Below, one piece after another: positions 11,445 through 57,035 of a stretch of 64,000 nucleotides of DNA. Position 1 is the stretch's first letter, and every line of letters starts with the position of its first letter. This stretch comes from Candidatus Flemingiibacterium merdigallinarum (GTDB lineage Bacteria; Bacillota; Clostridia; Oscillospirales; CAG-272). The stretch lies in contig CAJFKR010000001.1 of NCBI GenBank assembly GCA_904386005.1, positions 37,130 through 101,129 of the forward strand. The letters run 5' to 3'. The notes beneath the pieces were generated by a model, which saw nothing but the letters and a program-made list of their open reading frames with translations, searched no databases and was not told the origin of the DNA. The translations under genes and the position numbers were made by a program.

Positions 11445-12257
11445 TTAGATGAAGTCGTAAAAGTGTGTGATTTCGATGTCCTCGGGGATGTCCTGACCGT
11501 GCGAGCCGCGGCCGTTTTCCGCGGTGTGGACGCCGTGGTCGGTCGCGAAGCCGACAAGCGTAGCGCGCCCCGACGTAGCCGCCGCTGCCTTTGCCGCCGA
11601 ATGTATGCGCGCGAATGCCTTCGTGTGGTGGCGCAGCCATTCCATGGCCTCCTCGGACTCGGGATAGGTCGCGTGCATGACCGAGTCGTACATTCCGTTG
11701 TATATGACGAGGAAGTCGTATTTATCCTCGGCTATCAGCTCGAGTCCCTTTCTGACCGCCTGCTCGTCGGCGTCGGCAGAAGCTTCGAAGATGTAGTAGT
11801 CCATGTCGCGCTCGAGAAAGATTTTCGAAATCGAGCAGCCCTCGGTCGCGACTATGGCGACACGCTTGCCCTGACGTATCAGCGCGTCGAATATCGTGTC
11901 GATTTTAAGCACCGGCTTCTCGTATTTCTGTATGCCGTGACGCTCGGGCGCGGCTCCGGTATACATCGTCGCGAAGCAGACCGGCGTCACCGACGGCATA
12001 ACCGTCGCGAGCGGGTACTCGAGCGCGCAGCGCTCGGATACGTCCTCGAAATACTCGGGGTATTTTTTATACAGCCACTCGGCCATGGCGTCGGGATTGT
12101 ACATGATTACCCGCTCGGCGGTCTCTTCGCCGCAGAGCTTTTTTAAGTGCCCCGCGCTTTTCTCGGCGCTCTCGGGAGCCTTTATGCCCATGCAGTCGCA
12201 GATATCGGCGCAGAGCGCTGTAAGCGAGGTTCTGGCTTGTTCCATAATTATCACCAT
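11445..12257 (-). CDS. Alkaline-phosphatase-superfamily enzyme (nucleotide pyrophosphatase/phosphodiesterase-like)
   Basis: 270-aa ORF. MPSVTPVCFATMYTGAAPERHGI (nucleophile Thr region) and GFATDHGVH are typical of type I phosphodiesterase/AP-superfamily proteins. The exact start is uncertain (12257 or 12242). Confidence 0.65.
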   Translation of the reverse strand: MVIIMEQARTSLTALCADICDCMGIKAPESAEKSAGHLKKLCGEETAERVIMYNPDAMAEWLYKKYPEYFEDVSERCALEYPLATVMPSVTPVCFATMYTGAAPERHGIQKYEKPVLKIDTIFDALIRQGKRVAIVATEGCSISKIFLERDMDYYIFEASADADEQAVRKGLELIAEDKYDFLVIYNGMYDSVMHATYPESEEAMEWLRHHTKAFARIHSAAKAAAATSGRATLVGFATDHGVHTAENGRGSHGQDIPEDIEITHFYDFI

Positions 12258-12352
12258 GACTTCGCGTTAACGAAGTCTACTTTGCTAAAGCAAAGTATCC
12301 TTTCTTATGTCGATGTTTTGTGACGGCTTGATATTTTGCTTTTCGCGTCTAT

Positions 12353-13270
12353 TCAGATTTCCGCCGTCTCCGAGTACTCGATGTACGGGCGCTCGCCGTC
12401 GAACTTGATTTCGAGGACTACGTATGTGGACTCGTTGTAGCCGATGCTGCCGCCCCAGCGGTCGGCGAAGTATATAAACTTGCCGTCGCGCGGCAGGACA
12501 AACGCCGGCTGCGAGCCGAAGGTCGTCTCGTCTCCGAAATTTTCGAGCAGCGACCAGCTGCCGTCTATCGAGTCGGCGACCGACCACTTGCCTTGATTCG
12601 GCGCCCAGCCGGTGCAATACGAGGACAGCATATAGTATTTTCCGTCCTTTTTGAATATCGCCGGCGCTTCGCGGTACTCGCCCTGCCAGAGGATATTTAC
12701 GAGCCGCTCGGTGTTCATGAAGTCGCGCGTCAGCCGCCAGATGTGCAAATCGGCGTTGTCGCGCGACGCGGCGGCGAAATACGCGGTCCCGTCGTCGTCG
12801 CGGAACAATGTGCAGTCGCGCGCCATGTCGCCGAACGGATTGAAGCTGCCGTGATAGGTGAAGCCGTGGTCGGGGTAGTCGCTCGTCGCTACAGCGCAGC
12901 GCGCCGCGCTGTAATCGACTCCGTTCTCATAGTGCGCCCAGAGCACGTACTTTTTCGTGTGCTCGCAAAAGAGCACCTTCGGGCGCTCGAGGTTGACCTT
13001 GCGCGGCTTGCCGTCGGCGTCGGTGTGAGAAAGCGCAAGGTCGCTGCGTACCCGATAGCCCGCAGTCGGTGTGTCGGTTGTGATTATGTTGCCGCGGAAC
13101 TCGAAGCTTTTTAAGTCTTTTGAGCGGTAGCAGGAAATATAGTTGTTTTCGGTGCGGTTTTCGCCGTACCAGTAGTAATAGCCGTCGCAAAACAGCATAT
13201 GTCCGCCGTGCGCGTGTATTATATTGCCGTCGGCGTCGTACCATTTCTCGCCGTTTTTCAGTGTGTTCAT
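12353..13270 (-). CDS. Glycoside hydrolase family 43-like
   Basis: 305-aa ORF. The N-terminus WYDADGNIIHAHGGHMLFCDGYYYWYGE and repeated beta-propeller blade motifs are typical of GH43. No signal peptide. Confidence 0.8.
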   Translation of the reverse strand: MNTLKNGEKWYDADGNIIHAHGGHMLFCDGYYYWYGENRTENNYISCYRSKDLKSFEFRGNIITTDTPTAGYRVRSDLALSHTDADGKPRKVNLERPKVLFCEHTKKYVLWAHYENGVDYSAARCAVATSDYPDHGFTYHGSFNPFGDMARDCTLFRDDDGTAYFAAASRDNADLHIWRLTRDFMNTERLVNILWQGEYREAPAIFKKDGKYYMLSSYCTGWAPNQGKWSVADSIDGSWSLLENFGDETTFGSQPAFVLPRDGKFIYFADRWGGSIGYNESTYVVLEIKFDGERPYIEYSETAEI

Positions 13271-14588: not shown

Positions 14589-15512
14589 TCAGATGCAGCC
14601 GAGCATCTCGAGCTGCCGCTCGTCAAGACTGCCGTCGCGATAGATTATTATGTCGATAGTGACGACTCCGCCGACCGCGTTGACCTTTTGCACATAGTCG
14701 TGCATATACGCTCCGTCGCGCTTCGCGCCCGGCTTGCACCACGACCCCCACTCGCTGCCGTCGAGCGACCGTCCGAGCGGCGCGAGTATGTGCGCCTGCG
14801 CGCCGTCGACATAGCGCGAAGCGGGGACGAAAACAAAGTCGTTGAACTCACCGCAGGTGAAGTCGGACAGCGCGTAGTCCTTGGTCAGAGTCGGCTTGAC
14901 GCCGTCGTTGTAGGCGATGATAGCGTCGGGATTGCCGTTTCTGACCGCGGTTTGATATAGCTTCAAAAGCTCCTCGTCGTACTTGAAGTAGCGGTAGCAG
15001 CCGTCGATCCACCAGCCCTTGACCTTGTCGCCCCAGCGGCGCGAGTAGTCCTCGAGCACCGCCGCCCACTTCTCGACAAAGCCCCGATTCAGATTCTTAG
15101 TGCGCGGTTCGATATAGCCGAACTTTTCGCCTACCTCCACGTCCTTATACGGCCCGTCGCCGGTATAGTAGAGGTAGAGGTCGATGTCGTATTTGTGCAA
15201 CGCGTCGTACAGTTCGGACACGATATCCCGCTCGGCGCAGCATTCGCCCGGGCGCGTGCCGGCAATCGAGTCGAACGTGTCGTTCGGCGCGAGCATATAC
15301 TTGTGTCCCTGCATGAGCGTGATGAAGTAGTATCCGGCGCCGACCTCGTGCAGCGTCCGAGCGAGCCGCTCGACGTCGATCTGGTCGACGAGCTTCGACC
15401 AATCGACCTGTCCCGCGCCCATATTCGCCGGAGTCCCCGCGCGGTTCTGCTCATGCCAAAGGTAATGCGTAAACACGCCCCATTTTTTGTCGTGCAGTCT
15501 ATCGGTATTCAT
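14589..15512 (-). CDS. GH29-like (alpha-L-fucosidase fold) glycoside hydrolase
   Basis: KKWGVFTHY, AGYYFITLMQGHKYMLAP and RDIVSELYDALHKYDIDLYLYY follow the pattern of the GH29 catalytic domain. The start is moved to the ATG at 15512 (MNTDRLH), preceded by AAGGAGG. Confidence 0.5.
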   Translation of the reverse strand: MNTDRLHDKKWGVFTHYLWHEQNRAGTPANMGAGQVDWSKLVDQIDVERLARTLHEVGAGYYFITLMQGHKYMLAPNDTFDSIAGTRPGECCAERDIVSELYDALHKYDIDLYLYYTGDGPYKDVEVGEKFGYIEPRTKNLNRGFVEKWAAVLEDYSRRWGDKVKGWWIDGCYRYFKYDEELLKLYQTAVRNGNPDAIIAYNDGVKPTLTKDYALSDFTCGEFNDFVFVPASRYVDGAQAHILAPLGRSLDGSEWGSWCKPGAKRDGAYMHDYVQKVNAVGGVVTIDIIIYRDGSLDERQLEMLGCI

Positions 15513-15578
15513 AAAAGCCTCCTTGCGGTTTGCGTGATTCTTGATTTGCGGGTGTGGATGGAGCTTCAAAATAGTTGG

Positions 15579-15815
15579 GAATTAGGAGTTAGGAGTTAGG
15601 AGTTAGGAGTGGAGGAAGAAATTTGCCGGAGGCAAATTTCAATTAATTAAAATATATGGTTGAGCTGACTCTGTAATAATTTTAGTATAATAATATGCAA
15701 AAATCATGAAATTTTTGATAATAAGTTGTAAATAAGCGGCACGCCGCTCCACGTATTAAAATAGGAATTCGCCTTTGGCGAATTCCTACCGCAGCTCTCT
15801 GCGAAGCTGTGAGCG
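15579..15815. repeat. Hairpin-array repeat (family H), two arms
   Basis: The left arm has (TTAGGAGT)x4 then GAAATTTGCC-GGAG-GGCAAATTTC. The right arm in reverse complement reads CACAGCTTCGC-AGA-GAGCTGCGGTAG-GAATTCGCC-AAAG-GGCGAATTC. Confidence 0.8.
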
Positions 15816-20085: not shown

Positions 20086-20357
20086 GACCATACACCTTCG
20101 ATTTGAGCTGACCCTATGCGCGCTCTCTCCGGCACACGCTCGGGACAGGCAGCCTCGCGGCACATAAAAGTAACCGCTTAATGCTGCTTGGTTCCCCACC
20201 TGACATGGTTCACGGCCTTTCATTGCGCGAGACCCATCCGTCAACACGTATAATCCGGAGCGCAGACCACACAGAATCAGCCCTCGTCGAAGGAATCCAC
20301 CCCTGCTGCAGCGGATTGCAGGTACAAGGCACCGCTAATTCCCCGGCTGGTATGGCC
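20086..20357 (-). ncRNA. ffs: Signal recognition particle RNA, long Bacillus-type (~270 nt)
   Basis: The minus strand contains GGTGCCTTGTACCTGCAATCCGCTGCAGCAGGGG (Alu-domain 5' region) and CCATGTCAGGTGGGGAACCAAGCAGCATTAAGCGG (domain IV; compare E. coli GGUCAGGUCCGGAAGGAAGCAGCC). It sits immediately upstream of dnaX as in Bacillus. A 17-nt inverted repeat (ACAAGCTATAAAATAAG) plus a T-run flank it as a precursor stem/terminator. End coordinates are approximate. Confidence 0.85.
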
Positions 20358-33123: not shown

Positions 33124-34248
33124 ATGAATACAATGGCTACAGTTACCGAAACCGCCGCACTCAGCCCGTGCGAGCTTATAATGAAACCGACCGACCCGAA
33201 GTATACCGACGTCACGATCCGCCAGTTCCAAGGCTGCCCGACGATCGCCGCGACGCGCGGCGGGCGGCTGTATGTCGGCTGGTACAGCGGCGGCGTGCGC
33301 GAGCCGCACATCGATAATTTCAACCTGCTTGTATACAGCGACGACTACGGCAAAAGCTGGTCCGAGCCGCTGCTCGTAATCCCGTCGAGCCGCGAGCGGC
33401 TGGTTCACGCGCTCGACATACAGCTCTGGCTGTCGCCCGACGGGCGGCTGCACGTCTACTGGGTGCAGAACAATGTAAAGCCGGCGATAAAAAATCCCGA
33501 CGGCAGCTATGTCTACCCGGGCTACGAGTCGGACGGCTATATCTTCAACGACTTTACACACGCCGAGTGGTGCGTAGTCTGCGACGACCCCGACGCCGAG
33601 AATCCTGTGTTCGGCGAGGCGCGTTACGTCGACCGCGGATTTTTGCGCTGCAAGCCGCTTGTCACGTCGAGCGGGCGTATTCTCAATTTCAACTACGACC
33701 AGATGAGCGAATATTACGGCTACTCGTATTCGGACGACGGCGTCAATTTCACTCACGCCTACGGCGGAAAGAAGCTGCCGACGCCGTTCGACGAGACGAT
33801 GGAGTACGAGCGCCGCGACGGCAGCATCCGTATGCTCGCGCGCACATCGGTCGGATTCGCCGCCGAGAGCATATCATACGACAACGGCAGCAGCTGGACC
33901 GACGGTATCAAGACCGACATCCCGAACGCGAACACGCGCCTATATGTTTCGCGCACGCCGTCCGGACGGGTGATTATGGTCGGCAACGACTCGTCTAAGT
34001 CGCGCTGCCGCATGACCGTATATCTATCGGACGACGACGGCAAAAGCTGGGGTTGCAAGCGCTGCATAGACGAGCGCGAGGCGCTGTCCTATCCCGACGT
34101 CGACTTCCATGACGGCAGGATATATCTTGTCTACGACCGCGAGCGCAGCGGGCAGAACAGCGCGAAGGAGATACTGTTTACGAGCTTTACCGAGGAGGAC
34201 GTCATCTCGGGCGGCAGGATTGACGTCGCGGTTATCAGCAAGCCGTGA
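33124..34248 (+). CDS. BNR/Asp-box repeat protein, sialidase-like glycoside hydrolase
   Basis: 374 aa with Asp-box motifs SDDYGKSWSEP, SDDGVNF, DNGSSWTD and SDDDGKSWG. No signal peptide. The start could be 33124 or 33133. Confidence 0.7.
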   Translation: MNTMATVTETAALSPCELIMKPTDPKYTDVTIRQFQGCPTIAATRGGRLYVGWYSGGVREPHIDNFNLLVYSDDYGKSWSEPLLVIPSSRERLVHALDIQLWLSPDGRLHVYWVQNNVKPAIKNPDGSYVYPGYESDGYIFNDFTHAEWCVVCDDPDAENPVFGEARYVDRGFLRCKPLVTSSGRILNFNYDQMSEYYGYSYSDDGVNFTHAYGGKKLPTPFDETMEYERRDGSIRMLARTSVGFAAESISYDNGSSWTDGIKTDIPNANTRLYVSRTPSGRVIMVGNDSSKSRCRMTVYLSDDDGKSWGCKRCIDEREALSYPDVDFHDGRIYLVYDRERSGQNSAKEILFTSFTEEDVISGGRIDVAVISKP

Positions 34249-34388
34249 TCGAAGCGGGGCGGGTGTGCGGGCAGCGGTCGCGTGTGCGCGGAGAACTTTC
34301 GTGGCGGCGCGGATGTATGGCCTGTCGCGCAGGTGCGAATATAGTGAGCTGCCGCGGCAATTCGAGTATATCGTGATAGGAGACAGTC

Positions 34389-34967
34389 ATGAAATTATTG
34401 CTTATTGTCGCCGCGGTCGCGGCTTTGATAGCTCTGATACCATATCTGCGCATATTTATAAAGCGGCTCGAGCTGTATTTTCGGCTGCGCGGCTATTGCC
34501 GGCGCAAGGGGTTCGCTTTGCAGCCGACGCACACATTCTGGATGTTCGGCTCGAGGCGAGGCAGGAGGTGCGACTTCTATATTGTCAGCGACTTCGCCGT
34601 ATATTCGGTCAAGCTCTGGGCGATGAGGAGCTACCACACCGAGCTGCATTTCACCGAAGACGGCAGCTATTTCGTGCGCGGCTATATAGCGTTTGCCGCC
34701 GGACTCCTGTCGAGGATTCCGGTCGACTCAAAACGACGGCGGCTTCACGTCTGCGACTTCAGACCGGATTTTCGCGACGAGTGGTATATTAAGCCGTTTT
34801 ATCCGGTGCTGCTTATCAATCCGACCTGCTATGAGTTCAGATACAACACAAACGACGGCGAGACGGTCGTCGGCGCGGGCGAAATGCTGCACGGTATGTA
34901 TATCTACACGCTGTCGCGGCTGCTTGGCGAGCTTGATTCTATCGAGCAGGGCATGAATTGGAGGTGA
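34389..34967 (+). CDS. Hypothetical membrane-anchored protein, first gene of the MutS-like operon
   Basis: 192 aa with an N-terminal TM helix LLLIVAAVAALIALIPYL. RBS is TAGGAGA. The stop lies 4 nt before the next start. No recognised family. The strand pattern CDFYIVSDFAVYSVKLW weakly resembles a D...(E/S)xK nuclease-fold core. Confidence 0.5.
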   Translation: MKLLLIVAAVAALIALIPYLRIFIKRLELYFRLRGYCRRKGFALQPTHTFWMFGSRRGRRCDFYIVSDFAVYSVKLWAMRSYHTELHFTEDGSYFVRGYIAFAAGLLSRIPVDSKRRRLHVCDFRPDFRDEWYIKPFYPVLLINPTCYEFRYNTNDGETVVGAGEMLHGMYIYTLSRLLGELDSIEQGMNWR

Positions 34968-34971
34968 CTGT

Positions 34972-36576
34972 ATGCGGTCATTTCTGCCGTATGACCGCGG
35001 CGTGACGATACCCGACCGCGTCTTTGAGGATTTGCAGACAAGGCGGATCTTTCCAGAGCGCGCCGTCAGAATCCTGAAATATCCCTGTAGACCCGAGACT
35101 CTGCGGCAACGTCAGCGGCTGTTCCGGCTGCTGCTGTGCGGCGAGTTTTGCGAGCGGTTCGAGCGTTTTCACGTGTCGCTGTCCGAGCTGCGCAGGCTCG
35201 ACGAAAGATTCAAGGCGAGTGCCGAAAATTCGGTGGTGCGCGGTCTTGCCGCGGCACAGCTTATCGAAAAATACCTCTCGGTCAAAGCCGAACTTCTCGA
35301 GCTTTGTCGCTTCGACAAGTCCGACGGCTGTAAATCGTCAGATGATGAGCCGTCCGGCGGCACGTGGTGCGACCGGCTGCTTGACCTGTGGAGCGATGAG
35401 GACGAGTCGATACGCGAGCGGCTCAATGCCTGCCGTCCGGCGATAGAATCGATCAAGAGCTTCGGACTGTCGCTGCAAGGCAAAAGCTGGATTGTACCAC
35501 TGCCGGACGGCGAGACCTATTCGGAACAGCTCTGCCGTTTGGCGGAGTCGCTCGGATTCAAGCTTTCGCCGCGAAACACGCGCGAGACCGCGCTCGATTC
35601 GGCGCTCGACGACGCAATCTGCCGCTTGTATCCCGAGGAGACATCGCGGCTGAAAGAACTTGCTTCGTTATGCTCTGATAAAGGCAATACGGACATCACG
35701 GCGCAAAGCTGCGCGGGCGACACGACGCAAAGCTGCGCTGACAGCTCGAATTTCTCACTGCGCGAAGCTATCGATACACTTGTCGGATATATCGACGAGA
35801 CGGCGTTCTGTCTCGAGGTCGCCGGATTCGTGCGCTCGGCGGCGGCAAAGGGGATCGAATACTGCTTTGCGCGCATTTCGACCGAGCGCGAGTATATCGC
35901 CGATTCACTGTACGACGTCACACTGCTCGCACAGAACGTTGTAAATATAGTGCCGAACGATGTGTATTTCGACGAGAGCGAGCGGTTTTACTTTTTAGTC
36001 GGCGCGAACGGCGGCGGTAAGACGACCTACCTGCGCGCGATCGGTCAGAATCTGCTGCTGTTTCTGTGCGGCGCGCCGGTATTCGCGTCGTCGGCGTCGA
36101 TATACCCGTTCCGTCACCCTGAGACGGTATTTGCCGATTCGTGTGACGGCGATGTCATACGCGAACGTTTATCTGAAATATTGCCGGACAGCTTTCTTTT
36201 GCTCAATGAAATCTACAGCTCGCTTGACGAGGAGCGAGGACTCGCATACGCGCTCGACTGCGCGGCAAGGCTTAGTAGGGCTGGCAGCTTCGGACTGTTC
36301 GTGACGCATTTCTACGGCGTCAGACAATCGGGGCTGCCGCTGCTCGAAACGCTGACCGCGGATGATAATACATCCGACCGCGCCGTGTCTGACCACGCTG
36401 CGTCCGACCGCGCCGCGTCCGGCGACACCGGCAGTGTGCGCACCTATAAAATCGTCCGTGCCACCGGTACGGCGAGCTCGCACGCGCTCGATATACTGAA
36501 AAAATACCGGCTTGACCCCGAATCATTGCGCGTGAGAATGAAAGCCATGCGTCAAAGGGAGGGTGGCGATGAATAA
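34972..36576 (+). CDS. MutS-related ABC ATPase A (MutS domain III/V only; Walker B D-to-N)
   Basis: 534 aa. Walker A is LVGANGGGKTTYLRAIG (compare MutS GPNMGGKST). Walker B is SFLLLNEIYSSLD (N replaces D). The C-terminus is YKIVRATGTASSHALDILKKYRL (compare MutS YKL..G.A..S.G..VA). There is no mismatch-binding domain I and no Smr domain. RBS TGGAGGTG. Confidence 0.7.
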   Translation: MRSFLPYDRGVTIPDRVFEDLQTRRIFPERAVRILKYPCRPETLRQRQRLFRLLLCGEFCERFERFHVSLSELRRLDERFKASAENSVVRGLAAAQLIEKYLSVKAELLELCRFDKSDGCKSSDDEPSGGTWCDRLLDLWSDEDESIRERLNACRPAIESIKSFGLSLQGKSWIVPLPDGETYSEQLCRLAESLGFKLSPRNTRETALDSALDDAICRLYPEETSRLKELASLCSDKGNTDITAQSCAGDTTQSCADSSNFSLREAIDTLVGYIDETAFCLEVAGFVRSAAAKGIEYCFARISTEREYIADSLYDVTLLAQNVVNIVPNDVYFDESERFYFLVGANGGGKTTYLRAIGQNLLLFLCGAPVFASSASIYPFRHPETVFADSCDGDVIRERLSEILPDSFLLLNEIYSSLDEERGLAYALDCAARLSRAGSFGLFVTHFYGVRQSGLPLLETLTADDNTSDRAVSDHAASDRAASGDTGSVRTYKIVRATGTASSHALDILKKYRLDPESLRVRMKAMRQREGGDE

Positions 36577-38095
36577 AGTCAGTCTGATGAGCCGTCGTCA
36601 AAATAGGGCTCAAAGCGAATTTATCTGTGACGCGACCGACCTTATCGTTCGACCGGCAAGGTCGGACGGCGGAGCTGTGCGGGAATTGCTGACACCGCTC
36701 ATTCGGGCGAGCGCAGATGTCGATGATATTATCTACCGGCAGGATATATTGCGCGAGTTTTGCGCCAGTGACCAGCTGCTCGCGCGGCTGAATATATTGT
36801 TTGAGCGGTTCAACGAATGCCGCGGCGAGTGGCTGAAATTCCGGAGCGACCGCCGGAACGCCGCGTCGAATCAATCGCTGTCCAATTACGGCGACTTCGC
36901 ACAGCTTCAGTGCCGGAATACGGCGGGGATATTAAAGCGAGTACTGCTCTTGCTGCGCGAGGTCAGGTCTCAGCTCGGCTCACCCGAGTCGGACGGTCTG
37001 CGTAAACTCGCCGCGGCTGTAGGCGCCGCCGACGGCGACAGCTTTTCCGAGCTGCTGTCGCTCTGCGGTCAGCTCGAATACCGCGCGCCGAATCACCCGA
37101 CCGACCTGCACATTGCGCTTGACAGTCTCGGTCGGATTGTCGGCGCGGAGCTGTGCGACCACAGTCAGATCAAAATCGTCGAGTGCGACCTCGAGCCTAA
37201 GGGCTGGCGTGCGCGGATTGGCGAGTCGGTATCAGACCTAATCGGCTTTTGCCGCGGCAAAAGCTTCGGCTCGAGTCAGACCGAAAATCCAACCGAATAC
37301 ACTCCCGTATGCGAGAGGGTGGGGAATGTGAATGTCAGTCTCTATGAGCAGCTCACATCACAGCCTTATTCGAGCCTTGCCGACCTCATGTCCGACCTTG
37401 CCGGTCAGATTTTCGACTGCTTTGCCGAGACTAAAAACGAGCTTGCGTTTTACGAGTCCGCGCTCAAATACTGCCACATTCTCGTTGAGCGCAATCTGCC
37501 GCTGACCTATCCGACATTCGGCGAGAATACAGTCATCGAGTCGCTATGCGACCTGCATCGCTCGCTCACGCCGGCAGAGTATACCGAATCTCAGTCGATA
37601 GTACCATTCGATTTCAAGGTCGACGCGAAATCGGGAACGCTCGTATACGGCGACGCCGACGGCAAGACCACATTCCTGCGCACACTCGCGGCAATACAGC
37701 TGCTCGCGCAGTCGGGGCTGCCGATACCGGCAGGACGCGCCGAGCTGCGGGTATATCGTCAGCTGTTCATAGCGTTCACCGAAGCGGAGGACACATTGTC
37801 GGAGGAGTATGGCGCGGGGCGCTTCGAGCAGGAGGCACACCGGATCCGCGACATCATCGACCGTCTCGAGCCGGGCGGACTCGTGATGCTCGACGAGCCG
37901 TTCCAGTCGACCGATCCGACTGAGGGCGCGCGCTGGCTTTACAATATCCTCGGCTACATCTCGGACATCGGCGGGCAGTGGGTGGCGGCGACAAGCCTTT
38001 CGGGACTGCGCCGCGCCGCATCGAACGGCGACGGACAGCCGGTCGGAGCGTATTTGTATAGTATAGCCGCCGACCACAAAATGGCGCGTGAATGA
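36569..38095 (+). CDS. MutS-related ABC ATPase B (degenerate Walker A, intact Walker B)
   Basis: The ATG at 36569 follows GGGAGGG and overlaps the upstream stop (ATGAATAA). The P-loop is VYGDADGKTTFLRTL (first Gly replaced). Walker B is GLVMLDEPFQSTDP. The N-terminal helical region is MutS2-like (DDIIYRQDILREF). Confidence 0.7.
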   Translation: MNKVSLMSRRQNRAQSEFICDATDLIVRPARSDGGAVRELLTPLIRASADVDDIIYRQDILREFCASDQLLARLNILFERFNECRGEWLKFRSDRRNAASNQSLSNYGDFAQLQCRNTAGILKRVLLLLREVRSQLGSPESDGLRKLAAAVGAADGDSFSELLSLCGQLEYRAPNHPTDLHIALDSLGRIVGAELCDHSQIKIVECDLEPKGWRARIGESVSDLIGFCRGKSFGSSQTENPTEYTPVCERVGNVNVSLYEQLTSQPYSSLADLMSDLAGQIFDCFAETKNELAFYESALKYCHILVERNLPLTYPTFGENTVIESLCDLHRSLTPAEYTESQSIVPFDFKVDAKSGTLVYGDADGKTTFLRTLAAIQLLAQSGLPIPAGRAELRVYRQLFIAFTEAEDTLSEEYGAGRFEQEAHRIRDIIDRLEPGGLVMLDEPFQSTDPTEGARWLYNILGYISDIGGQWVAATSLSGLRRAASNGDGQPVGAYLYSIAADHKMARE

Positions 38096-38104
38096 AAGAA
38101 TCGA

Positions 38105-38145
38105 GTCCTGACAGTTTCAGCCGCTGTCGGGACGATTGTTTTTAC
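38105..38145 (+). terminator. Rho-independent terminator after the MutS-like operon
   Basis: GTCCTGACAG-TTTCAGCCG-CTGTCGGGAC is followed by GATTGTTTTT, 10 nt after the stop. Confidence 0.55.
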
Positions 38146-38296
38146 ACAAAACTTTATACAAATTGTAAATTTCGGGGTATGGCATATACAAACGCGCGAA
38201 ATTATGATATAATTTAATATAGTACACAACCACACGCGGACATCGCAAAGTTGTTCTCCGTGTGCGATACCATCGCTTCGAAGGGGGCAAGTTCGG

Positions 38297-45879: not shown

Positions 45880-46983
45880 TCAGTCGTTCCTGACCGTCAC
45901 GCCGTACCAACCGTCGTCAGTCTCGGTGTAGATTGTGACGGCGTTCTCTCCGGTGTCAGCCGCGCAGCGGATAGAGATAATATCATCTCCGGCGAGGTAG
46001 CAGGTCGGACCGGTTATGTCAGTTGTAATCAGCGTAATCGTGCCGGTCACAAGGTCGAACTCGTACAAACCGCGCACACGCTGTTCGCCCTCGTTGGGCT
46101 GCGACGCCTGTCGACCGTTGAATATCACGCGGTCGTCGTCGACAAGGAGAACGTCGCACCAGAAATCGCCGCCGTTTAGAAGCAGCACTTGCTCTATTTT
46201 ACCGGTCGCGGCTACATAGCGATAAATCGCGGCGTTGTCGTTGTACTGATAGGTGTAGAAATACACTGCGCCGTCGCGGTACTGCGGCTTGTTGATACCG
46301 CCGTCGACCGCGAATCGACCGCCGGTCAGGTTTGTAAGTTCGAGCGTCTCGAGGTCGCAGGCGTACAGGTCGACCGGGTCGGCAAGGTAGAGACAGCCAT
46401 CCGCGACCGAAATCGTCAGTCCCAGCCACTCGTGCCCTTTGCCGTCGACGAGCTTTTCCCCTTTGCCGTCCGCAAGGCTCATGCGGTATATCGACTCGGC
46501 ATGGAGCGCGGCGTCGGCGGTGTTGTGATAGTATACATAGCCGTCATAGAACAGCGCGCCAAACGCGTCGGCGATGAACAGCTCGGGCTCGCCGTCCGTG
46601 ACGCGGTAGACATTGTAGCTGCCGTCGGCGGCGGTCGCCGAAAAATAGATATCGCCGTCATATTCGGATATGTACTGCGCCGTGCCGAGCTCGCCGGTGA
46701 CAAGGGTACCTGCTCCGTCGGCATTTGCCGATTCGGCTATTGCCGATTTGGTCTTGTCCCAGCGGTAGAGGCGGCGACCGTCGAACACGTTCGCCCACCA
46801 GACGCTGTCGTCGGTCTCATAGAAGCGTCCGGCTGACGCGCGGTTCGCAATAAGGTCGCCGTATGCGTCGGACGACGCATCGGTTGAAGCATCAACAACT
46901 GCATCTATTGATGCTCCGTTCGTGTTCGGGAACGCTCCGAGTCCCATCAGTACGCTGAGGATAATCGCGATGACATTTTGCAT
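45880..46983 (-). CDS. Secreted beta-propeller-like protein (DUF5050-like)
   Basis: It has a signal peptide MQNVIAIILSVLMGLGAF. Repeated blade-like segments (IYF/VYY...D..IYR) resemble DUF5050. The start at the ATG 46983 lies 8 nt after GGAGGTG. Confidence 0.5.
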   Translation of the reverse strand: MQNVIAIILSVLMGLGAFPNTNGASIDAVVDASTDASSDAYGDLIANRASAGRFYETDDSVWWANVFDGRRLYRWDKTKSAIAESANADGAGTLVTGELGTAQYISEYDGDIYFSATAADGSYNVYRVTDGEPELFIADAFGALFYDGYVYYHNTADAALHAESIYRMSLADGKGEKLVDGKGHEWLGLTISVADGCLYLADPVDLYACDLETLELTNLTGGRFAVDGGINKPQYRDGAVYFYTYQYNDNAAIYRYVAATGKIEQVLLLNGGDFWCDVLLVDDDRVIFNGRQASQPNEGEQRVRGLYEFDLVTGTITLITTDITGPTCYLAGDDIISIRCAADTGENAVTIYTETDDGWYGVTVRND

Positions 46984-47142
46984 TTGGTACACCTCCGATT
47001 ATTGCAGCTTATAAGCTGTTTTGAATTTTGTTTATATGTTATATTAGACGTATAATGATACAATTTTGTTCGGTTAATTTATAAATTGCCCCACGTATTA
47101 TTGCTTTTACAATATCAACGTGGGGCTGCATATTACGACTGT

Positions 47143-47901
47143 CTATGCTATCATATCACAGAGTTTATCATAATACCCGGCATAATCTTCATTACCGGAG
47201 ATAGCCGCTATCGCTTCTTCTATAACATCATTAGTGATGTTATAATGTTCAAGTTCGGCATCGCTCATATTGGCTATCCAGCGAACATCAAATTCTCTGC
47301 CTCCATGAGTAATGGTCACAGCCTCTACAAGATTGTTCTCGGTGGCATTGGGATCATAATCATAATAAATACCGCCGGAAGATCTTGACGCCGATGTCAT
47401 ATCAGGGAAGTAGTTCAATGGGTCAACAGCAGTTCCTGCATACCAATCGGTACCAATTGTATATGGCGTGTCGTTTTCTCTGATTTCGAAGTGGAGATGA
47501 ACTCCTGTCGAATCATTACCGGTGGTGTTCATCTCGCCGATCTTATCTCCCTCGTCGACCGGACCATCATCAATAATATCCGTCAGTGTATCAGGATTTG
47601 TGAGATGGTTATACTTCGCGCCGACATAATACGACCCCATAGGGTTGTTGACACGGCAAACATACCCAGCACTTTGGTCATAGCTGTATTTATACACATT
47701 GCCGTCAGCAAATGAGTAAACATCGTCGCCTGCAACACCGGGAGTTATCGGACCAATATCAATCGCTTGGTGACGATCCGAGTAATACTGGGTTATGCGC
47801 GTACTCTCAGTTGGCCATGTATATGCAGACGTGCTGACACCTAAAAGGGTTATTGAAATTGCAGTCGATAAAACAACGGCAATATTTTTTATCTTTTTCA
47901 T
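47143..47901 (-). CDS. Secreted M23-family (LytM-type) metallopeptidase with unknown C-terminal domain
   Basis: It has a signal peptide MKKIKNIAVVLSTAISITLLG. The HxxxD motif is DRHQAIDIG and the HxH motif is GVHLHFEI. It is AT-rich relative to the window. The start at 47901 follows AAAGGAA. Confidence 0.8.
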   Translation of the reverse strand: MKKIKNIAVVLSTAISITLLGVSTSAYTWPTESTRITQYYSDRHQAIDIGPITPGVAGDDVYSFADGNVYKYSYDQSAGYVCRVNNPMGSYYVGAKYNHLTNPDTLTDIIDDGPVDEGDKIGEMNTTGNDSTGVHLHFEIRENDTPYTIGTDWYAGTAVDPLNYFPDMTSASRSSGGIYYDYDPNATENNLVEAVTITHGGREFDVRWIANMSDAELEHYNITNDVIEEAIAAISGNEDYAGYYDKLCDMIA

Positions 47902-48080
47902 ACAATTCCTTTCTGTTGACATAATAAATCAACACTAATGTGAATTTTCGAATACATGTTAATCATAATCTCCACATTGGCGTATCCTCCATTCCACTTC
48001 ACCGCCTGCGTTTAACCGTAAGCGATTATATTCACATAACAACAGTATTTTGTTGTTATATATCGATAAGTCATGCCTTA

Positions 48081-48503
48081 TTATGGGCAAGTCTTAACCT
48101 GTGTGTCCTGCACCGGTTCGTCATAATCAGGCGTCGAAACAGTAGCTTCGAATTCAACCTTATATTCACGCCCACTCACTGCCGTGAAAGTTTCGTTGAT
48201 AGTCAATATGTTGTCGTCGACATCATATGACCAATCCTTGGGAATTTCCACCCAACTACCGCTTGAGTTTTTGTAGTACAAAGTCGCTGTGGCTGTGATG
48301 TTGGTGACATCTGTATTTCCGCCTACAAACACATTGTATGTTGCTTGTGTTCCATGGAAATTTAAGTAGCAATCCAAAAACTCAACATTAGTCCATCTTC
48401 GGTCGAGATTTAAACCATAAGCATTACTTACAGCGCTTATTTGCATACAAACAACCGAAATTGTTAGTAAGAAAACGAGCACCGTTTTAAGAATACGTTT
48501 CAT
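48081..48503 (-). CDS. Small secreted protein of unknown function
   Basis: 140 aa with a signal peptide MKRILKTVLVFLLTISVVCMQISA. The composition is beta-rich. It lies in the AT-rich island between the anti-sigma and M23 genes. GGGGGA RBS. Confidence 0.45.
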   Translation of the reverse strand: MKRILKTVLVFLLTISVVCMQISAVSNAYGLNLDRRWTNVEFLDCYLNFHGTQATYNVFVGGNTDVTNITATATLYYKNSSGSWVEIPKDWSYDVDDNILTINETFTAVSGREYKVEFEATVSTPDYDEPVQDTQVKTCP

Positions 48504-48639
48504 AACGAGTCCCCCTTTGAAAATTGTCCTTTCACTATATATAACGCTTCACAAGGTCATTTCGTTTGAAGATTTTCGAAAATATTTTTGAAAATTCTAT
48601 TTTCAGCAATTTATATAAAATTTTACATAATTTTTGTGT

Positions 48640-48667
48640 AAAAAAGAGGGCACTGCTTATGTGCCCA
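48640..48667 (-). terminator. Rho-independent terminator after the anti-sigma gene
   Basis: The minus strand reads GGGCAC-ATAAGCAG-TGCCC, followed by TCTTTTTT. Confidence 0.55.
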
Positions 48668-48679
48668 AAAATTATGGAT

Positions 48680-49384
48680 TTATTCTATTGACTCGGCTAA
48701 CTCCATGATAAACTCTCGTTCAATATCCGCATTCTCACGTACTATTCTATACGAATACAAGCCGTCCTGCCATATCAAAATCAACGTACCCTTATCCGTG
48801 AGATCAAGCCAGTAACCTTCATGTCCGTTGACCGTAGTCTTTTCAATGACAGTTGCTTCGTTGTCATAATTTGAGCCTGCATTATCCAGTATATTTTGAG
48901 AATATAGAATAGTTTCTTCTCCGTCATGTAAATATAGAACATAATATGTGAATTCGTTGTCCAACAGCACTTCCTTTTCCCATTCGTCCGGCACAGTCGG
49001 CTCGCGCTTTTCCTCTATAAAGGATGGCGGGGCTTCATTCGCGCTGTCAGGCACAAACTGCACCGAAAAGTACTCGTCGTACCAATCGAAAACCGCGTTC
49101 CAGAACGACTCGCGCACCGCTTCAATGCTCATCGCAAAAACGAAAGCCGTGGTGCATAATACCAGAATCACCGCCGCCGCCCGTCTTGCAAAGGCGTAAA
49201 CGAACCCATATTCCTGCCGTCTCCACTCGCGGTTGATTATTCTGTTGATTTTTTTGTCCAGCGCCTTGGGTATCTCTATATTAGAAATGTCGACAGCGTC
49301 GAATTCGGAGATGTTCTTTTCAGCGAGAACATGGGCGGAAAGCATTATCAGCGCGTCGAGCTTGTCATTTTTCAAATCACTCAC
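48680..49384 (-). CDS. Membrane anti-sigma factor with DUF4367-like extracytoplasmic domain
   Basis: The GTG start at 49384 overlaps the sigma-factor stop (GTGAGTGA). It has a single TM helix AAAVILVLCTTAFVFAM. The C-terminal ...VNGHEGYW...ILIWQDG pattern resembles DUF4367. The ORF-track extension to 49579 overlaps the sigma gene. Confidence 0.6.
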   Translation of the reverse strand: MSDLKNDKLDALIMLSAHVLAEKNISEFDAVDISNIEIPKALDKKINRIINREWRRQEYGFVYAFARRAAAVILVLCTTAFVFAMSIEAVRESFWNAVFDWYDEYFSVQFVPDSANEAPPSFIEEKREPTVPDEWEKEVLLDNEFTYYVLYLHDGEETILYSQNILDNAGSNYDNEATVIEKTTVNGHEGYWLDLTDKGTLILIWQDGLYSYRIVRENADIEREFIMELAESIE

Positions 49385-49952
49385 CAAATTCCTCTCGTAA
49401 TATTTCCCGAAGCTTCTTCTTCGCCTGAAAAATGCGGTTCCGCATCGCGCTGTCGCTGATACCGACGAGCTTCGCGGCTTCGGCGCAGGACAGGCCGCAA
49501 TAGTACACCAAGTTGACCGCGTCCGCAAGGTCTGACGAAATGCGCAGAAGCGCGTCTCTGACATGGCGATACTCTTCATTGCTTATTACAGTTTCTTCTG
49601 TATTTGAACTTGTATCTTCCACATCAAGCGGCAGAATGTCGTCATCATCAGATTTATAGAACATCTCGCCTTCATATTTTTGCTTGGTTTGTTTTCTTCT
49701 ATAAATATTGATGGCAACATTACGAGCTATTGTATTGGTAAGAATCATCAATCTATTTTTCAGCTCGTCTTTATTGCTTTCACGAAACGCGTCAATGTTA
49801 TTTATTATTTGAATCATAGTCTCTTGAAGCGCTTCGCCGGCGTCATGCTCATTATGTAATATACCAATTGCAATAGCGTATATTTTGTTTTTATGACATT
49901 CATATATTTCCGCGACAAAGCTGCGGTCATCGTCACAAAGCGCGGCTAACAT
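49377..49952 (-). CDS. ECF-like sigma-70 family RNA polymerase sigma factor
   Basis: 191 aa. Region 2 is IYAIAIGILHNEHDAGEALQETMIQI. The region 4 HTH is YYCGLSCAEAAKLVGISDSAMRNRIFQAKKKL. It is translationally coupled to the downstream anti-sigma factor. Confidence 0.8.
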   Translation of the reverse strand: MLAALCDDDRSFVAEIYECHKNKIYAIAIGILHNEHDAGEALQETMIQIINNIDAFRESNKDELKNRLMILTNTIARNVAINIYRRKQTKQKYEGEMFYKSDDDDILPLDVEDTSSNTEETVISNEEYRHVRDALLRISSDLADAVNLVYYCGLSCAEAAKLVGISDSAMRNRIFQAKKKLREILREEFGE

Positions 49953-50140
49953 TGTATAGAACAGCGTTATCGCCCCCTTGTATTAATTATATTTGACTAA
50001 CTTTGTTTTGTCAATAATATTGTAATAATTTTTGCAAAATATTTATAACATCGTATAATACTTGACAAAGGATTATAATTATAATATAATTTATGAAAAG
50101 TGTTACATTCTGAGTAATTTCATAGCAAAGGAGCAACATC

Positions 50141-56961: not shown

Positions 56962-57035
56962 TGGGGATTTGTGTAATGGCAGCACAGCAGACTCTGACTC
57001 TGTATGTGGGAGTTCGAATCTCTCATCCCCAGCCA
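56962..57035 (+). tRNA. tRNA-Gln (anticodon CTG), CCA-encoded
   Basis: 74 nt. The acceptor stem is TGGGGAT/ATCCCCA (U1-A72, as in bacterial tRNA-Gln). It has a 3-bp D stem GTG/CAC, anticodon stem GCAGA/TCTGT with loop CTCTGAC, T arm GGGAG-TTCGAAT-CTCTC, discriminator G and CCA. Confidence 0.9.

Follow-up and report, generated by a model that had tools for sequence, protein, structure and literature searches.

The MutS4 subfamily was defined by Lin, Nei and Ma in 2007 for MutS-type proteins that retain only domain V and are encoded by adjacent genes, the stop codon of MutS4A overlapping the start codon of MutS4B, and it was reported from Thermoanaerobacter, a few other bacteria and Thermoplasma/Ferroplasma as a group of unstudied function (PMC2190696). 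Kim et al. (2017) termed this gene arrangement a "signature structure" and reported more frequent recombination in Mycobacterium smegmatis as the effect of a mycobacterial MutS4 operon (PMC5742357), and horizontal transfer of MutS4 was argued in both papers (PMC2190696, PMC5742357). Here we describe a three-gene operon at positions 34389-38095 of a stretch of 64,000 nucleotides (nt; the window) of Candidatus Flemingiibacterium merdigallinarum (CAJFKR010000001.1), in which a gene for a small membrane-anchored protein (gene 1) is followed by genes for two MutS-type ATPases, A and B, and we conclude that A and B are a divergent version of MutS4A/MutS4B, a subfamily that has a name but whose function is unstudied. 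An earlier note on this DNA had left that membership unrecognised. Although named in 2007, MutS4A/B is still an orphan within the MutS family, probed by a single indirect functional study, and this locus reveals a large clade, restricted to gut Clostridia, in which the pair has a dedicated membrane-anchored partner of nuclease-type, albeit weakly supported, fold. We consider it fairly probable that the trio is a divergent, lineage-specific MutS4A/MutS4B pair with an added membrane-anchored partner, working as a heterodimeric, slowly switching clamp with a tether or effector.

Beyond MutS4, comparison was made with MutS2, MutS/MSH2-MSH6 and KamC. Like MutS2, A and B have the lever/core and ATPase regions without MutS domains I and II, and MutS2 proteins are the best sequence matches of B in the Protein Data Bank (PDB). 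Unlike MutS2, which forms homodimers and has KOW and Smr domains at its C terminus and DE at Walker B, the pair comprises two distinct subunits that lack Smr, comes from a family with NE at Walker B and is accompanied by a nuclease-like protein encoded separately; true MutS2 proteins among our search matches (P0064, P0081-P0089) do carry the Smr family (PF01713). In MutS and MSH2-MSH6 the ABC sites are dimeric and are known to be used asymmetrically. A and B share the fold of these proteins (Foldseek E~1e-15) but have neither domain I nor the connector domain, and carry a natural Asn at the position of D693 of E. coli MutS. KamC (lysine 5,6-aminomutase reactivase, NF052383) resembles the pair as a MutS-domain-V ATPase of ~500 amino acids (aa) without repair domains and is the best NCBIfam match of B (E=2e-15), but B and A, at 56 and 31 bits, respectively, fall short of the cut-off of 300, and the alignment is limited to the ATPase core. 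Moreover, the genes flanking the trio include no recurrent lysine aminomutase (kam-type) or B12 mutase family.

The operon and its MutS-type subunits

The locus is a genuine three-gene operon of an uncultured gut Clostridia bacterium, with the following features in window coordinates:

34389-34967, plus strand: gene 1, membrane-anchored protein of 192 aa (from the open reading frame (ORF) listing)
34960-34966, plus strand: Shine-Dalgarno sequence of gene A, GGAGGTG, overlapping the TGA stop of gene 1
34972-36576, plus strand: gene A, 534 aa, MutS4A-like subunit in which a helical lever/core and an ABC ATPase are followed by a conserved segment at the C terminus
36001-36024, plus strand: Walker A of A, GANGGGKT (residues 344-351), whose G, N, G, G, K and T do not vary among 86 A orthologues
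36193-36210, plus strand: Walker B of A, FLLLNE (residues 408-413), in which Asn replaces the Mg-coordinating Asp
36373-36421, plus strand: low-complexity insert (SDRAA)n of A, a 15-nt tandem repeat of 3.3 copies (Tandem Repeats Finder), of low predicted local distance difference test score (pLDDT) at residues 466-488
36569-38095, plus strand: gene B, 508 aa counted from the ATG, MutS4B-like subunit
37649-37672, plus strand: P-loop of B, GD-ADGKTT, shorter by one residue than GxxxxGKT
37883-37897, plus strand: Walker B of B, VMLDE, with DE where 95% of B orthologues have NE
38105-38143, plus strand: terminator-like hairpin of 11 bp (38105-38133) followed by a T-run, 10 nt past the stop codon of B
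38185-38213: promoter-like site ahead of the gene downstream of the trio

The three ORFs are coupled, and both junctions and every motif quoted in the earlier note (GANGGGKTT, LLLNE, VMLDEP) are present as described there. Between gene 1 and gene A the sequence reads GGAGGTGActgtATG, with 4 nt separating the stop codon from the ATG at 34972, while the junction between A and B, ATGAATAA (36569-36576), is an 8-nt start/stop overlap in which the ATG of B lies inside the end of A. GGGAGGG precedes ATGAATAA at the start of B, for which an alternative GTG start is found at 36563, and gene 1 has its own Shine-Dalgarno-type AGGAGA 7 nt 5' of its ATG. Because the hairpin follows B and the promoter-like site precedes the next gene, the trio forms one transcription unit that is separate from the XpaC-TelA-LemA genes downstream.

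Several lines of evidence established that A and B consist of a MutS lever/core and ABC ATPase without a mismatch-recognition, connector or Smr domain, as had been proposed from the sequence. First, the Pfam MutS_V model matched B with 39.8 bits (cut-off 30.2, passed) and A with 23.5 bits (under the cut-off), and neither protein had a Pfam match to MutS_I (PF01624), MutS_II (PF05188) or Smr (PF01713), nor a match to KOW or to any other C-terminal domain. NCBIfam gave partial, far sub-threshold matches only, to MutS, MutS2 and KamC, the MutS scores being 33-36 versus cut-offs of 480-642. Second, a profile of A orthologues matched residues 352-790 of MSH2 (E=1e-23), which we take to be domains III-V according to published domain boundaries, and a profile of B orthologues matched MutS2 (E=4e-22) and residues 333-792 of MSH2 (E=2e-19); the single sequence of B had the MutS2 core 7vuf as its best PDB match (E=3e-10). 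Third, the AlphaFold model of A (pLDDT 82.9, with disorder limited to the low-complexity inserts at residues 244-257 and 466-488) retrieved MutS, MSH2 and the MutS2 core in Foldseek at E~1e-15 (6e-16 for MSH2/MutS). Despite its sub-threshold Pfam score, A is thus unambiguously MutS-type, on the basis of the profile match to MSH2 and the matches of its model. The view of the earlier note that the system is not one of canonical mismatch repair is supported.

A and B aligned end to end in hhalign (E=1e-37, 432 columns) and are therefore full-length paralogues, although B ends ~35 residues before A, without A's conserved C-terminal segment (residues 503-522). From this paralogy and the conserved translational coupling it is reasonable to infer that A and B probably form a heterodimer, the assembly that had been suggested before. 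The low-complexity insert of A noted earlier is likewise real, being encoded by the 15-nt repeat at 36373-36421 and modelled with low pLDDT. A-type proteins range from 534 to 614 aa among close relatives and tolerate expandable low-complexity inserts. One protein of 763 aa (P0201) was considered as an A-B fusion and rejected, as it is an A-type protein with a low-complexity repeat insertion of ~310 aa between lever and ATPase.

As the best solved relatives of B are MutS2 cores, including the ribosome-bound 7qv3 and 8qpp, and KamC is its best NCBIfam match (E=2e-15), the pair might act in translation or protein quality control, like MutS2 (a ribosome-collision sensor) or KamC (an enzyme reactivase), and not on DNA. 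RqcH works with MutS2 in Bacillus, and an NFACT/RqcH gene lies two genes from the trio on a metagenomic contig (L091:1268-3031, minus strand), a single case that may be chance. We regard this explanation as highly unlikely, given that A and B have no Smr or KOW match, that the KamC score is 56 versus the cut-off of 300 with no lysine aminomutase genes nearby, that the RqcH neighbour occurs once only, and that the partner protein is putatively of nuclease-type fold.

To place the pair, we used as reference the pairs of L003 (a Thermoanaerobacterium genome), L088 (an Alicyclobacillus plasmid) and L089 (a Burkholderia plasmid), all of which have a 4-nt overlap and were assigned to MutS4 from their gene arrangement and taxon rather than from the accessions listed by Lin et al. 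(2007). A was ~23% identical to the product of the first gene (MutS4A) of the Thermoanaerobacterium pair, and B-type searches brought up the second-gene type of canonical pairs. The window holds what defines MutS4, namely MutS ATPases without domains I, II and Smr that are encoded by adjacent genes on the same strand, A then B, with a stop/start overlap. In a neighbour-joining tree of the ATPase domain (bootstrap run on 63 taxa), all MutS4-type sequences formed one weakly supported clade apart from MutS2 (bootstrap 44%), in which a grouping of A with MutS4A (S4A) had bootstrap values of just 5-16%. The shared NE Walker B, as opposed to DE in MutS1 and MutS2, supports the MutS4 grouping at the level of sequence.

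The pair resembles MutS4A/MutS4B in that both proteins are of ~500 aa and made up of core and ATPase only, are encoded by side-by-side paralogous genes that overlap, and belong to a family with an NE Walker B. Unlike canonical MutS4 pairs, the window's clade has a conserved membrane-anchored third gene and no fluoride riboswitch, and A of the window has the H-loop His that is lost (VTF) in canonical MutS4A. A tblastn search of plasmids yielded distant MutS4-type pairs only and no close relative, and a cluster look-up supplied no names of use.

The nucleotide sites of A and B

The earlier note had read the sites of A and B as reciprocally degenerate, A with a canonical P-loop and a defective Walker B (LLLNE) and B with the converse, and had taken this asymmetry as typical of obligate heterodimeric ATPases. 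Conservation across the family does not bear this out. The Walker B Asn was present in 100% of A (n=86) and 95% of B (n=77) orthologues, followed by Glu in 100% of A, and an alignment of ATPase domains revealed hhhhNE in canonical MutS4A, canonical MutS4B and the A and B proteins of the gut clade, whereas MutS1 and MutS2 have hhhhDE. Since NE is common to both subunits family-wide, the LLLNE of A is the family norm and not a defect specific to A.

The oddities of B, by contrast, are confined to its lineage. Walker A is canonical in every A and likewise in all B orthologues (GxNGSGKT) except that of the window, which is the sole one of 77 with a P-loop deletion and the sole one with DE, and which also shares the loss of the H-loop His with a few others. 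The B P-loop is atypical (GDADGKTT), as had been stated, but the "lost first Gly" is better read as a deletion of one residue relative to the GxxxxGKT of other B orthologues. Three relatives with 92-95% identity (P0001, P0011, P0012) retain a GDTGSGKT P-loop in B. Among relatives at this level of identity the B P-loop is polymorphic, with GD-ADGKT in 12 clusters versus canonical-length GDTGSGKT in 3 clusters, which suggests relaxed or shifting constraint on the B nucleotide site in the window's lineage. To judge by these residues, B looks like a weakened or non-catalytic site in this lineage. The asymmetry between the A and B sites is real in the window's lineage, but recent and local, and not a design principle of the family; canonical MutS4A exhibits another asymmetry, in the loss of its H-loop His (VTF). 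With "complementary degeneracy" recognised as a lineage quirk, a false lead is removed.

What the family does share is a natural equivalent of a known switch mutation. In E. coli MutS, the D693N substitution lowers Mg2+ affinity, impairs fast switching and reduces repair in vivo (PMC2857095). The Walker B Asn of MutS4 sits at the D693 position, and the D693N structure (PDB 3k0s) was among the structural matches of A. Because of this D693N-like Asn, we infer that MutS4 proteins may be slow nucleotide switches with weak Mg2+ coordination, a property that the whole family would then carry naturally.

The membrane-anchored protein and the conservation of the trio

Hydropathy analysis of the 192-aa gene 1 protein indicated a single N-terminal hydrophobic transmembrane helix (residues ~2-20) followed by a K/R-rich stretch, so that by the positive-inside rule the globular domain would be cytoplasmic; the one helix named in the earlier note is thus borne out by hydropathy and by the structural model. 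The protein had no match in Pfam, NCBIfam or PADLOC. An exhaustive profile search nonetheless defined a family of 753 cluster representatives at E<=1e-3, nearly all of them stand-alone proteins of ~185 aa. The AlphaFold2 model (pLDDT 91.9) is an alpha/beta domain for which the top Foldseek matches (PDB and BFVD), none of them significant, are almost wholly of the restriction-endonuclease fold, including Hjc/Hje, RecU, VRR-NUC, "PD(D/E)XK endonuclease" and R2 RLE proteins.

Across 160 family members, D62 and K75 are conserved in 96% each, and K135 is also conserved. D62 and K75 fit the D and K of the PD-(D/E)xK motif in order and spacing (D, 10 residues, SxK), but unlike PD-(D/E)xK proteins the gene 1 product has an N-terminal membrane anchor and extra beta-strands. 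The D...SxK nuclease-fold core that the earlier note had proposed is hence weakly plausible as a fold, from the Foldseek lists and D62/K75, but not as a complete catalytic motif, the second acid never being present. In the family, E66 (73%, though Val in the window) and D/E165 (86%) are candidate substitutes for it, and Ser or Ala at the second-acid position is a variant known from Cfr10I-type enzymes. As judged from the model, a nuclease-type fold of the gene 1 protein is weakly supported.

To survey the distribution of the trio, we scanned GTDB, at one genome per species, for matches to the A profile. A relative of A was present in at least 298 species-level genomes, and loci were surveyed for the best 80 of these 298, all of them uncultured Clostridia, Eubacteriales or Oscillospiraceae metagenome-assembled genomes from animal or human gut. 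We classed all ORFs of these loci by hidden Markov model and counted as informative those loci with enough flanking sequence. B was immediately 3' of A in 77/77 informative loci, and the gene for the small membrane protein was immediately upstream of A in 52/72 (~72% of species). The view of the trio as conserved and coupled is therefore sustained, A and B being an obligate pair that is often joined, in this clade specifically, by the small protein. In the converse direction, starting from homologues of the small protein and looking up individual contigs, we found A-B directly downstream in five of the seven informative contigs. In one of the contigs carrying a small-protein homologue (L006), a neighbouring protein of 500 aa was considered as a cryptic MutS and rejected (hhalign probability 0.1%, with a weak beta-helix match).

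Proposed mechanism, riboswitches and gene neighbourhood

On the reading that we favour, a lineage-specific MutS4A/MutS4B clamp with a membrane-anchored partner, A and B would pair as a MutS-like heterodimer that has two composite nucleotide sites. With the Walker B Asn common to the whole family (cf. D693N), this dimer would be a nucleotide switch that is slow and gated by a signal, and not a fast ATPase, and in the window's lineage, where the B site looks degenerate (P-loop deletion, no H-loop His), A would provide the main catalytic site. The small protein would keep its cytoplasmic domain, of restriction-endonuclease-like type, on the inner side of the membrane and act as a tether and/or effector for the A-B clamp. 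The substrate would most likely be nucleic acid, and the physiological role would most likely be a stress or damage response.

Several observations weigh against this reading. First, the small membrane protein is missing upstream of A in 20/72 loci, where unrelated genes are found instead (many of these loci hold lower-scoring A orthologues), and two contigs (L006, L007) have small-protein homologues without an A-B pair. Second, the gene 1 model had no significant Foldseek match in PDB or BFVD (best E=0.013, TM-scores <=0.52), and position 73, two before K75, is Ser in 50% and Ala in 37% of family members and never an acid, such that the second acid of (D/E)xK is missing. Third, the sub-placement of B is weakly supported, with a bootstrap value of 7% for grouping with MutS4B (S4B) within a MutS4 clade that itself has 44%. 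Fourth, the window is without the fluoride riboswitch of canonical pairs, so that a role cannot be transferred from canonical MutS4. Finally, MutS2 and KamC show that MutS-type ATPases can act on ribosomes or proteins, which makes a nucleic-acid substrate an assumption.

The riboswitches in question belong to Rfam family RF01734, the crcB motif, which Rfam names the fluoride riboswitch. RF01734 elements were found directly upstream of the MutS4 pair in 3/3 examined loci (L003, L088 and L089), and further elements precede a ClC gene, an MFS gene, a second MutS_V gene and a sigma-70 gene in these reference loci:

L003: 6323-6386 and 3041-3104, RF01734
L088: 4584-4645 and 8599-8665, RF01734
L088: 12048-12108, RF01734 preceding a sigma-70 family sigma factor gene (12184-13032) on the Alicyclobacillus plasmid
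L089: 4716-4777 and 1183-1249, RF01734

The plasmid-borne MutS4 pairs sit among genes for ClC-type channel, MFS, Mn-efflux and DUF190 proteins. Weinberg et al. (2010) had recorded the crcB motif upstream of 'mutS' genes (PMC2864571), and these genes appear to be MutS4 pairs. Taken together, the NE Walker B and the riboswitch control of the canonical pairs offer testable handles on a MutS heterodimer that is not a repair protein.

In the window, by contrast, no RF01734 element was detected at Rfam gathering scores, nor at E<=10 in a scan of 33800-35100, a region that includes the gap before gene 1, and a model built from seven reference riboswitches found none in 87 loci of the window's clade (L001-L087). 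The gut clade has left, or never had, the fluoride-riboswitch circuit. This bears on the possibility that the trio is an ion- or fluoride-type stress module as in canonical MutS4, with riboswitch control replaced, for example by the sigma-70-like protein that adjoins the trio in 17 species (see below). The riboswitch upstream of all three canonical pairs, the crcB motif before 'mutS' genes (PMC2864571), the ClC, MFS, Mn-efflux and DUF190 genes of canonical loci, the riboswitch-bearing sigma-70 gene of the Alicyclobacillus plasmid and the position of the operon beside TelA, XpaC and LemA in the window would all accord with such a module. Neither the window nor the 87 clade loci hold a riboswitch, however, the TelA neighbourhood is limited to close relatives, and the flanking genes show no recurrent fluoride transporter. 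For the gut clade, a role in fluoride or stress response is thus plausible but not supported, and we consider this explanation unlikely.

Genes for XpaC-type (PF10112), TelA and LemA proteins do lie downstream of the trio in the window, as the earlier note had pointed out in naming an xpaC-telA-lemA stress cluster, but they constitute a separate transcription unit and their synteny with the trio is limited to relatives of ~90% identity. The latter have the same order (AP_endonuc_2, BNR_2, trio, XpaC, TelA, LemA), while the adjacency to XpaC-TelA-LemA occurs in none of the 80 other species surveyed. The TelA cluster is a neighbour and not a partner of the trio.

Only one flanking family recurs in the 80+ loci, a cytoplasmic protein of ~553 aa that combines sigma-70 regions 2 and 4 with an uncharacterised C-terminal domain of ~380 aa. 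In 17 species its gene ends exactly at the start of the small-protein gene on the same strand, yielding a four-gene operon there (for example L008:318-1979, L017:4749-6410, L025:2964-4625 and L031:4734-6395); the window does not encode this protein. The sigma-70 gene preceded by a riboswitch on the Alicyclobacillus plasmid deserves mention here, as a sigma-70-like gene also abuts the trio in these 17 gut Clostridia species. Apart from this family, ABC exporters flank the trio in ~10 loci and helix-turn-helix (HTH) regulators in a few, and nothing else recurs.

The variation of flanking genes between species could also be taken to favour a role in anti-phage or anti-plasmid defence, which the earlier note had suggested and in which a MutS-like clamp would sense foreign nucleic acid and activate a membrane-tethered, nuclease-like effector. 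The combination of ATPase and nuclease fold resembles the architecture of many defence systems, and MutS4 pairs are patchily distributed, also on plasmids, with horizontal transfer argued in both papers on the subfamily (PMC2190696, PMC5742357). PADLOC-DB 2.0, however, gave nothing for B or the small protein and only short P-loop matches for A (best E=6e-4 over 38 residues). The 106 flanking proteins compared with PADLOC had generic HTH-type matches and one radical-SAM similarity only, with no defence effector, and a scan with the A profile found no relative on a viral contig. Moreover, the module is near-universal and vertically coherent in one lineage of gut Clostridia and syntenic with housekeeping genes in close relatives. 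The surroundings of the trio are not the picture of a defence island, and with PADLOC, the 106 neighbours and the viral-contig scan all giving nothing in its favour, we consider a defence module quite improbable.

Compared with these alternatives, the lineage-specific clamp with a membrane-anchored partner also lends itself to a broader and decidedly speculative extension, which we put forward as a doubtful conjecture. A nuclease-fold membrane protein together with an NE-type MutS4A/B pair might constitute an unrecognised membrane surveillance or repair machine in gut Clostridia, and the MutS4 family as a whole, marked by a natural Asn at the Mg-coordinating Walker B position and riboswitch-controlled in many phyla, might be a switch for perturbed Mg-nucleotide chemistry, such as metal-fluoride poisoning of ATPases or GTPases.

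A number of minor observations were made at individual loci. In L001 (967-5993), genes for a PqqD-like protein, a radical SAM/SPASM protein and two ABC exporter proteins lie directly upstream of the trio and have the look of a cluster for ribosomally synthesised and post-translationally modified peptides (RiPPs), and in L005 (5073-7998) a Dlt-like set (PP-binding carrier, MBOAT and a 348-aa protein) reaches the small-protein gene with a 3-nt gap. Group II intron RNA domains (L003:13059-13143 and 15484-15676, minus strand) and an RVT_1 gene are located ~4 kb downstream of the Thermoanaerobacterium MutS4 pair. Within the window, positions 46001-50000 have a GC content of 0.42-0.50 versus a window average of ~0.56 and a negative GC skew, and may be a horizontally acquired island. 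The Rfam scan of the window also identified a bacterial large SRP RNA (20088-20355, minus strand) and a tRNA gene (56962-57032, plus strand).

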